Shown in pieces: positions 62,408 to 63,508 of a DNA stretch of 64,000 nt. Position numbers and translations under genes: made by a program. The DNA lies in assembly GCF_988242995.1 (NCBI RefSeq), contig NZ_OZ547043.1, one strand, 5' to 3'. How positions within the stretch are numbered: position 1 is the stretch's first letter; each line of letters opens with the position of its first letter. The notes under the pieces were generated by a model. That model was not told the origin of the DNA. It saw only the letters and a list, made by a program, of their open reading frames with translations, and searched no databases.

Positions 62408-63508
62408 TTAGAACTGATAGGTAATGCCCGTTGCGACGATGTTATCGGTGCGAATATCTACGGCACGGGTAAAGTCGCTTTCATCAATCAGGTTGATTTT
62501 ATAATCAACATAGGTCGACATATTTTTGTTGAAGAAATACGTCGCACCAACGTCGATATACTCAATCATGTCCTGGTCGCCGTAGCGGCCCAGATCTCTG
62601 CCTTTCGATTTCAGGTAAGCGAGTGATGGGCGCAAGCCGAAGTCGAATTGATATTGTGCCACTACTTCAAAACTTTGTGCTTTGTTAGAGATATAACCAT
62701 CGCCATAGGTGGTCATGTTTAATGTTTCAGCGTAATTAGCTGCAAAGTAGATGTTGTTGGCATCATATTTTATACCTGTAGCCCACAGTTCTGCATTCTT
62801 ACCGGAGGCATTGAGAGGATTAGCAGCGGCTCTTTCCTGCGCATTTGTCCGATCGGATTTGGTATACACCGCACCGATACCAAAGCCATCATAAACATAA
62901 GTTGAGGAGATACCGAAACCGTCACCATTGGCACGCGTGTAGTCAGCACCATAAAGATGACCATTGTCAGTGCGTTCATTTTTGCCTTGATATTGCGCGG
63001 CAAAGTTCAGACCTTCAATTAAGCCGAAGAAATCGTAGTTGCGATAGGTTGCCACACCGGTAGTACGGTATGTCATGAAGACATCTTTCTGACTCCAGGT
63101 ATCGCCACCAAATTCTGGCAACATATCGGTCCATGAACCAATGTCATAGCCGACACCGTAGTTACGACCATAGTCCAGAGAGCCAAATTCACTAATTTTT
63201 AAACCTGCATAGGCCAGACGGGTCTTGTTACCGCGCGAGCCGTTGGCTTCATCGTTATAGCCTTTAAAATCATATTCCCAGTGACCAAAACCAATCATTT
63301 GATCATTGATTTGCGTTTCTCCTTTAAAGCCGAGACGGGCATAAGTTTTATCACCATCGTCACGCTTATCATCAGTAAAATAACGTAGAGCGGTAACCTT
63401 GCCATAAAGGTCGAGTTTATTACCATCCTTGTTATAGACTTCGGCAGCGTGTGCTACGTTCGCAGCTAACAAACCAGTTACAACCACCGCAACTATTTTT
63501 AATTTCAT
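62408..63508 (-). CDS. general bacterial porin, OmpC/OmpF/PhoE family (intact)
   Basis: 366 aa; signal peptide [21 protein letters not shown] then [16 protein letters not shown] porin N-terminus; C-terminal ...TGITYQF. Confidence 0.9.

Follow-up and report, generated by a model that had tools for sequence, protein, structure and literature searches.

The 64,000-nucleotide stretch of DNA analyzed here (contig NZ_OZ547043.1 of NCBI RefSeq assembly GCF_988242995.1; hereafter the window) carries near its end an uninterrupted gene for an outer-membrane porin. This gene is very probably the intact Escherichia coli chromosomal orthologue of ompD of Salmonella, Citrobacter, and Enterobacter, and its product would be a general diffusion porin. 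It lies where E. coli K-12 has the short pseudogene yddL, which is the stump left by a deletion in the full porin gene. The gene is real, was correctly read from its letters, and was already known; it is an ordinary accessory E. coli porin, not new in kind. The residual novelty lies in the explicit identification of yddL as the ompD remnant, in the recurrent loss of the gene set against the strong constraint on its product, and in the predicted loss of control by the small RNA (sRNA) MicC.

The reading frame is open throughout, occupies exactly the interval given in the table, and encodes the protein WP_000768393.1. An earlier reading of the window, made from its letters and open reading frames alone (the sequence-only reading), had described an intact porin here, and the open frame, the signal peptide, a full match to the Porin_1 domain, and the C-terminal phenylalanine are all present. 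The Pfam profile Porin_1 (PF00267) is matched from its first to its last position (1-337 of 337) by residues 27-366, with E = 2e-134 and a score of 448.6 bits, the cut-off being 23.7. In a phmmer search against PDB, residues 22-366 cover the whole of the OmpC, OmpK36, OmpF, and PhoE chains, with E-values of ~1e-127 to 1e-112. Residue 22 pairs with residue 1 of the mature OmpC and OmpK36 chains, and because the mature-chain alignment begins there, cleavage of the signal peptide is placed by homology after the AHA that ends at residue 21 and before the AE that follows. The protein terminates in TYQF, with YQF at the place of the conserved terminal phenylalanine.

The residues that line the pore of this family are likewise conserved. 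In the numbering taken from established structural work, the constriction residues of OmpF are K16, R42, R82, R132, D113, and E117. In an alignment of 29 sequences, all of these are kept in the window porin, where the equivalents are K37, R58, R97, R148, D128, and E132 and the motif in loop L3 is PEFGGD; this loop is most similar to L3 of Salmonella OmpD. The fold family (Porin_1), the constriction residues, and the C-terminal signature are thus common to the window porin and to the solved structures 2J1N, 1OPF, and 1PHO, as well as to OmpK36 and OmpK37 of Klebsiella pneumoniae.

In a homologue search over 5.8 billion proteins, the nearest full-length relatives outside Escherichia were the chromosomal porin of Citrobacter koseri (78% identity), the chromosomal porins of other Citrobacter, Enterobacter, and Lelliottia (72-75%), proteins named porin OmpD in Salmonella (72-74%), and the prophage NmpC/Lc porins (66-68%). 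Direct pairwise comparison gives 74% identity with Salmonella OmpD, which is the nearest relative with a name of its own, and the best phage-borne copies among 50,697 phage records are 68-70% identical. In 94% of neighbor-joining bootstraps, the window porin and Salmonella OmpD share a clade from which K-12 OmpC, OmpN, OmpF, and PhoE are absent, and in none does the window porin join NmpC/Lc to the exclusion of OmpD.

Gene order points the same way. The porin stands in the series narZ-narU-LRR-LRR-porin-yddG-fdnGHI, in which LRR denotes a leucine-rich repeat gene. Here, and likewise in Salmonella, C. koseri, and E. albertii, the porin gene directly follows the EamA-family gene yddG in the same orientation and is bracketed by fdnGHI and narU/narZ; in Enterobacter hormaechei, yddG and ompD are adjacent and a deletion spanning both has been described (PMC11874173). 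The place and orientation next to yddG, shared by these genomes, make the gene the positional orthologue of ompD. When E. coli is compared with Salmonella, the proportion of synonymous sites that differ comes to 0.73 in the porin, as against 0.70 in yddG and 0.71 in narU; these values are near saturation and thus amount to a coarse test of vertical descent, but their closeness suggests that the porin has been at this site for as long as its neighbors.

The likeness to Salmonella OmpD (STM1572; nmpC in the LT2 annotation) extends beyond the slot and orientation to a near-identical L3 and the charges of the pore and, on the side of the gene, to a partly alignable leader, the same Shine-Dalgarno block, and a predicted complementarity to the seed of the sRNA RybB. 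The two proteins differ in a quarter of their residues, mostly outside the conserved strands. The genes also differ in third-position G+C (44% in the window porin versus 57% in Salmonella ompD) and in their downstream neighbors, which are the LRR genes in E. coli as against GFA-domain, smvA, and smvR genes in Salmonella and Citrobacter. The Salmonella protein is a major porin of that organism and is known for its abundance, its induction by anaerobiosis, its regulation by pH, and a role together with YddG in the efflux of methyl viologen (PMC4215857).

The corresponding K-12 locus can be derived from this arrangement by deletion. The equivalent interval of the K-12 RefSeq record holds narU, one frameshifted LRR pseudogene, yddL, yddG, and fdnGHI. 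The sequence-only reading had the position right, the flanks narU and yddG/fdnG being those of K-12 yddL, and the mere fragment that it expected in K-12 is borne out by the record, in which yddL (b1472) is a 276-bp pseudogene annotated as "porin, missing C-terminus". When the window is compared with K-12 by BLAST, the match to the remnant, at 98% nucleotide identity, is limited to the upstream region and the initial ~284 bp of the porin gene. As this alignment stops after ~284 bp at a deletion junction, yddL is the deletion stump of a full porin gene. The junction of the ~1.54-kb deletion shows a 3-bp microhomology (CCG), and the other deletion in K-12, at window positions ~60719-61360 (642 bp), joins both LRR genes across a TCAAT microhomology. 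The ~1.54-kb segment missing from K-12 agrees in size and position with O-island 62 of the O157:H7 strain EDL933, which measures 1,548 bp (PMC3079680). The 96-aa YddL, discussed in a 2023 survey as a possible four-strand barrel with a role in the osmotic response (PMC9976479), is a product of this truncation and not an independent gene. Similarly, the genome paper on the enteroaggregative E. coli (EAEC) strain 042 (PMC2808357) and the sRNA literature (PMC3333887) equate the K-12 counterpart of ompD with the prophage pseudogene nmpC. Judging by position and alignment, that counterpart is yddL rather than nmpC, a point absent from those papers.

Across the species, the gene is widespread but far from universal. 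At least 80% of the porin region is found in 1,111 of 5,426 complete E. coli genomes (20%), and the C-terminal part that K-12 lacks is found in 1,118 of them. Three states of the locus can be distinguished, with shares that are approximate, being taken from an evenly spaced sample of the 5,426 ranked genomes: a full-length locus (~20%), the K-12 junction (~57%), and a locus with only the yddG end and no porin gene (~23%). In the last class, of which strain DS566 is an example, the 4.15 kb corresponding to window positions ~59539-63689 are missing, so that narU abuts yddG, with neither LRR gene nor the porin between them and with little left of the porin leader. This class may have originated either in a single 4.15-kb deletion or in loss of the porin from a lineage that was never given the LRR block. 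Its narU-yddG junction contains ~9 unrelated bases, AAAGTCATT. The carriers of the gene form two groups. In one, which comprises 042 and many isolates from humans, dogs, pigs, and poultry, the alleles have an identity of 99% or more, and in the other (O157:H7, O55:H7, and O145:H28) it is ~97.7%; the carriers have been assigned to the former ECOR group D and its relatives (PMC3079680).

We inspected 13 full-length loci, of which 11 carry an intact gene, while a frameshift breaks one and an internal stop another; IS1 lies inside the porin gene of one further E. coli genome, and the E. albertii copy is also split by IS1. Intact E. coli alleles show 18-38 synonymous versus 3-6 non-synonymous differences, and the resulting ratio of non-synonymous to synonymous divergence (dN/dS) of 0.02-0.04 indicates that the porin is maintained by selection where it is present. 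The replacements seen among alleles (G93D, T180S, G183S/A, T262R, and R304I) appear, in the alignment and a low-confidence structural model, to fall at or past strand ends, which is consistent with locations in loops. On the other hand, the gene has been discarded several times independently, through the 1.54-kb deletion, the 4.15-kb deletion, IS1 insertion, a frameshift, and a nonsense mutation.

In the upstream region, the proximal ~150 nt give a patchy alignment among Escherichia, Salmonella, and C. koseri, within which the AAGGATT block that holds the Shine-Dalgarno sequence is kept in Salmonella, C. koseri, and E. albertii. The promoter search that the sequence-only reading had proposed for this region found sigma-70-like matches, but only weak ones; two of them lie at 63668-63640 and 63583-63554. 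The leader of Salmonella ompD has a length of ~69 nt, as inferred from PMC4911921, and if the E. coli start site were homologous, the match at 63583-63554, which is the better placed of the two, would fall within the leader. A search of the window for CRP sites (TGTGA-N6-TCACA, with up to 3 mismatches) returned 203 matches versus 232 expected by chance; because this is uninformative, a conserved upstream TCACA half-site is given no reading.

In Salmonella, MicC represses ompD by pairing inside the coding sequence at codons 23-26 (PMC3333887; PMC4911921), and RybB has its target in the early codons (PMC4911921). We computed duplexes restricted to the seeds at these published sites, with the E. 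coli sequences of both sRNAs as recovered from K-12. The 12-bp MicC duplex has a predicted energy of -15.8 kcal/mol in Salmonella and C. koseri versus -6.8 kcal/mol at the E. coli porin. At the RybB seed, 8 bp still pair, two of them as G-U, at a predicted -13.7 versus -18.3 kcal/mol in Salmonella. This suggests that sRNA control of the E. coli porin has been partly rewired, with the MicC site degraded and that of RybB perhaps retained. Unrestricted RNAduplex runs of MicC and RybB against the mRNA from -60 to +120 were set aside, since the long looped duplexes that they produced did not surpass those of shuffled controls; sRNA 5' ends mis-set by the boundaries of the Rfam matches were part of the cause.

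By homology with the characterized members of the family, the product would be exported by the Sec pathway with its 21-residue signal peptide and inserted into the outer membrane by the Bam machinery, which would recognize the C-terminal aromatic signature YQF. There it would assemble into a trimer of 16-stranded beta-barrels and act as a general diffusion channel, narrowed by L3 with its acidic D128 and E132 opposite the basic cluster of K37, R58, R97, and R148, through which small hydrophilic solutes would cross passively. The conserved charges of the constriction predict a mildly cation-selective passage, like that of OmpC and OmpD. The analysis itself shows that the gene is intact, that it belongs to the family, that the constriction residues and the synteny are conserved, that K-12 has suffered the deletion, and that selection is purifying, whereas trimer formation and channel activity, as well as the level and conditions of expression, are inferred.

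Several of our own observations weigh against this reading of the gene as an intact and functional ompD, and they are taken up here with the alternatives on which they bear. An AlphaFold2 model built from the 29-sequence alignment has the expected succession of strands, but its mean confidence (pLDDT) is 63.5, with values below 50 in L3, and it adds little; because of this low confidence, it was left out of the fold search and the ~60% identity to solved porins was used instead. The NCBI annotation pipeline PGAP names the gene "porin OmpC" or ompC in every genome examined, which would accord with a canonical ompC or ompN copy for which synteny with yddL had been wrongly assumed, the outcome that the sequence-only reading had itself named as fatal to its claim. 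The label, however, follows from a narrow pass of the broad NCBIfam OmpC subfamily model (495 bits versus a cut-off of 484), while the OmpF and PhoE equivalog models are missed (459 versus 583 and 458 versus 599 bits, respectively). When the K-12 genes are taken from their own loci, the window porin is only 62% identical to each of OmpC and OmpN, and 61% and 59% identical to OmpF and PhoE; these proteins have other loop sequences and are encoded at other loci. K-12 ompC adjoins apbE and rcsD (apbE-ompC-micF-rcsD), and ompN adjoins uspF and nifJ, whereas the flanks here, narU and yddG/fdnG, are those of yddL, whose remnant is 98% identical to the 5' end of the window porin. A misplaced ompC or ompN is therefore ruled out by the identity and the flanks, and we accord it virtually no likelihood. 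The earlier assignment to an OmpC/PhoE family stands at the level of the superfamily; at finer resolution it does not, as the protein belongs to the OmpD/NmpC group. Within that group, the narrower groupings have bootstraps of just 34-45%, and the porin clusters with NmpC/Lc as well as with OmpD, as might be expected of a gene brought in by a prophage through lysogenic conversion. A recent island shared with the LRR genes is a related option: the region was taken in 2011 for a recently acquired low-G+C island (PMC3079680), the LRR genes have 34% G+C, and the porin with 44% is also below the window mean of 49%. Either origin is very improbable. NmpC (of DLP12), Lc (of PA-2), and the phage-borne proteins named OmpD belong to the same broad group, but they sit in lambdoid prophages and are at best 68-70% identical to the window porin, which is chromosomal, at a conserved core site, and without phage genes in its flanks. 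E. albertii carries the porin at this site without the LRR genes; Salmonella, C. koseri, and Enterobacter have theirs in the same slot and orientation by yddG; at synonymous sites, the porin is as far from Salmonella as the neighboring core genes are; and the G+C content of the porin is 10 points away from that of the LRR genes. Synteny, the arrangement in E. albertii, and the matching synonymous divergence tell against xenologous replacement and co-acquisition with the LRR island; the acquisition of the porin together with the island, as proposed for the whole region (PMC3079680), is rejected, the porin being ancestral.

A different kind of objection accepts the orthology with ompD and concerns the use of the gene. 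Two synonymous changes in the E. coli porin disrupt the MicC site, so that this hallmark of Salmonella ompD is not kept. The promoter scan upstream of the porin gave nine sigma-70-like matches versus 4.3 +/- 1.9 in shuffled sequences, the best scoring 9 of 12, with no strong promoter among them. The searched literature yielded no expression or proteomic report of the E. coli porin, and the extra porin genes ompN and nmpC are quiescent in E. coli according to a reference cited in PMC3333887. The gene could thus be quiescent despite its intactness, in the manner of ompN and nmpC of E. coli B, and silenced in ordinary circumstances, for instance by H-NS on its AT-rich leader, in which case it would have little effect on permeability and be heading for loss. 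The low G+C of the upstream region (28%), the weakness of the promoter matches, the recurrent independent inactivation by the five kinds of event listed above, the lack of reports of the protein in the searched literature, and the precedent of silent porins all favor this possibility, which we take seriously but consider doubtful. Set against it are the low dN/dS across alleles whose synonymous divergence reaches 8-18%, and the conservation of the Shine-Dalgarno sequence, of blocks in the leader, and of the predicted seed site for RybB. A low dN/dS implies long-term selection on the protein and hence a need for its expression under some natural condition. Quiescence is compatible with the integrity of the gene and is kept as a live qualifier of the orthology reading. 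An extension of that reading in the opposite direction can be offered tentatively. The yddL locus may be the true chromosomal OmpD of E. coli, in place of nmpC as usually assumed in the sRNA and porin literature, and the porin may be expressed as a third or fourth general porin in carriers of the phylogroup D/E/F types (such as EAEC 042, O157:H7, O55:H7, and O145:H28) under rewired control, with MicC lost and RybB kept; on this view, selection against the porin, and not neutral decay, would account for its repeated loss elsewhere.

The gene has a history under several names. The 2010 genome paper on EAEC 042 listed "an apparently functional ompD (Ec042-1601)" among six intact porin genes (PMC2808357), and the window protein is identical to Ec042-1601; in 2011, orfs 1599-1601 of 042 were placed between narU and yddG (PMC3079680). 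The porin of the O-island 62 region of O157:H7 has the same flanks and is an allele with 3 amino-acid differences, and public assemblies contain the exact sequence of the window porin on 1,000 contigs or more. Searching the literature by locus tags in the style of O157 and 042 retrieved nothing beyond PMC3079680. A gene described as "ompD" in E. coli ATCC 25922 (PMC7696260) proved to be a "porin protein LC" of the prophage type and not the gene of the window. The 90%-identity cluster to which the porin belongs (9,017 members) is represented by a 603-aa LepA (translation elongation factor 4) of Roseburia, a clustering artefact; because the cluster is headed by this protein, the exact full-length porin is missing from the list of homologues.

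Features of the porin locus in the window (nucleotide coordinates; position 1 is the first letter of the window)
Feature	Coordinates	Strand	Remarks
LRR1 (EspR1-like)	59660..60916	-	418 aa, 34% G+C, intact
LRR2 (Ec042 orf1600-like)	60979..62244	-	421 codons, GTG start, open, low G+C
Segment missing from K-12-type genomes	61684..63222		~1.54 kb; C-terminal ~817 bp of porin, spacer, 5' part of LRR2
Intrinsic-terminator-like hairpin	62373..62396	-	9 bp with 6 G-C pairs, then TTTTTGATTT; 11 nt past the stop
Porin coding sequence	62408..63508	-	366 codons plus stop, ATG start, one terminal stop
Portion surviving in K-12 as yddL	63225..63508	-	~N-terminal 94 codons
Region homologous to MicC target	63424..63448	-	Codons 23-26; site location from PMC3333887
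Signal peptide, codons 1-21	63446..63508	-	By homology; mature protein from residue 22
Region homologous to RybB seed target	63469..63499	-	Early codons; PMC4911921
Shine-Dalgarno sequence AAGGA	63518..63522	-	9 nt 5' of the ATG
Intergenic region, yddG stop to porin ATG (promoter and 5' leader)	63509..63766	-	~28% G+C
yddG, 3' part (aromatic amino acid efflux DMT [drug/metabolite transporter] family)	63767..64000	-	Runs off the window; directly 5' of the porin, co-oriented

The two effector-like LRR genes that the sequence-only reading had noted beside the porin are present. LRR1 matches the LRR_4 and LRR_8 profiles and has weak similarity to SlrP-like LRRs; an NEL domain was not detected in it. 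In O157:H7, its counterpart is frameshifted and bears the annotation espR1, a type III secretion system effector leucine-rich repeat protein. The LRR2 counterpart Ec042 orf1600 is the published PCR marker for phylogroup-D EAEC. At the LRR2 site, PGAP annotates only a 288-bp pseudogene fragment in strains 042 and JNEC-KY178, which have an identical locus, and a full LRR protein in AST85; LRR2 may be an under-annotated real gene. The K-12-type fusion of the LRR genes is known as yddK, and some strains (KFu021) have it annotated as an intact protein of 443 aa. Both genes are absent from the site in E. albertii, Salmonella, and C. koseri. In E. albertii (positions 9013-9130 of the compared sequence), the porin stands directly beside the upstream region of narU, with the LRR block missing and with neither LRR nor GFA/smvA/smvR genes. 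Given this arrangement, the ~2.9-kb low-G+C LRR block (window ~59570-62400) appears to be a later insertion, specific to E. coli, beside an ancestral porin.

A few further features of the window were recorded in passing. The open reading frame of narU at 57960-59390 (-) gives 476 aa from an upstream TTG versus 462 aa (1,389 bp) in RefSeq, and the longer form probably reflects nothing but an upstream in-frame start. Rfam matches include the group II catalytic intron model D1-D4-2 at 45840-45948 (+), with 48 bits versus a gathering score of 36 (an intron or a remnant of one), the sRNA RydC at 5094-5157 (-), the sok antitoxin RNA of a hok/sok locus at 5717-5868 (-), and the Hfq-binding RNA STnc490 at 12217-12340 (+).

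These findings tidy up an annotation muddle, which comprises the PGAP name ompC, the equation of ompD with nmpC, and the 96-aa YddL; the practical value of this is modest. They leave the general view of how porins act unchanged. More broadly, they indicate that the porin set of K-12 is incomplete as a guide to the species, with about one in five E. coli genomes encoding an extra general porin that is selectively maintained. Effects on permeability and on susceptibility to phages and colicins, which had been suggested when the gene was noticed, are plausible for any general porin. If the porin is indeed expressed as an additional general porin, then the pathogens that carry it would differ from K-12-type strains in their permeability and in their profiles of phage and colicin receptors and antibody targets. 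The gap in the porin set of K-12 is worth bearing in mind in studies of antibiotic entry, of phage and colicin receptors, and of porin-based vaccines in O157, EAEC, and the other carriers.

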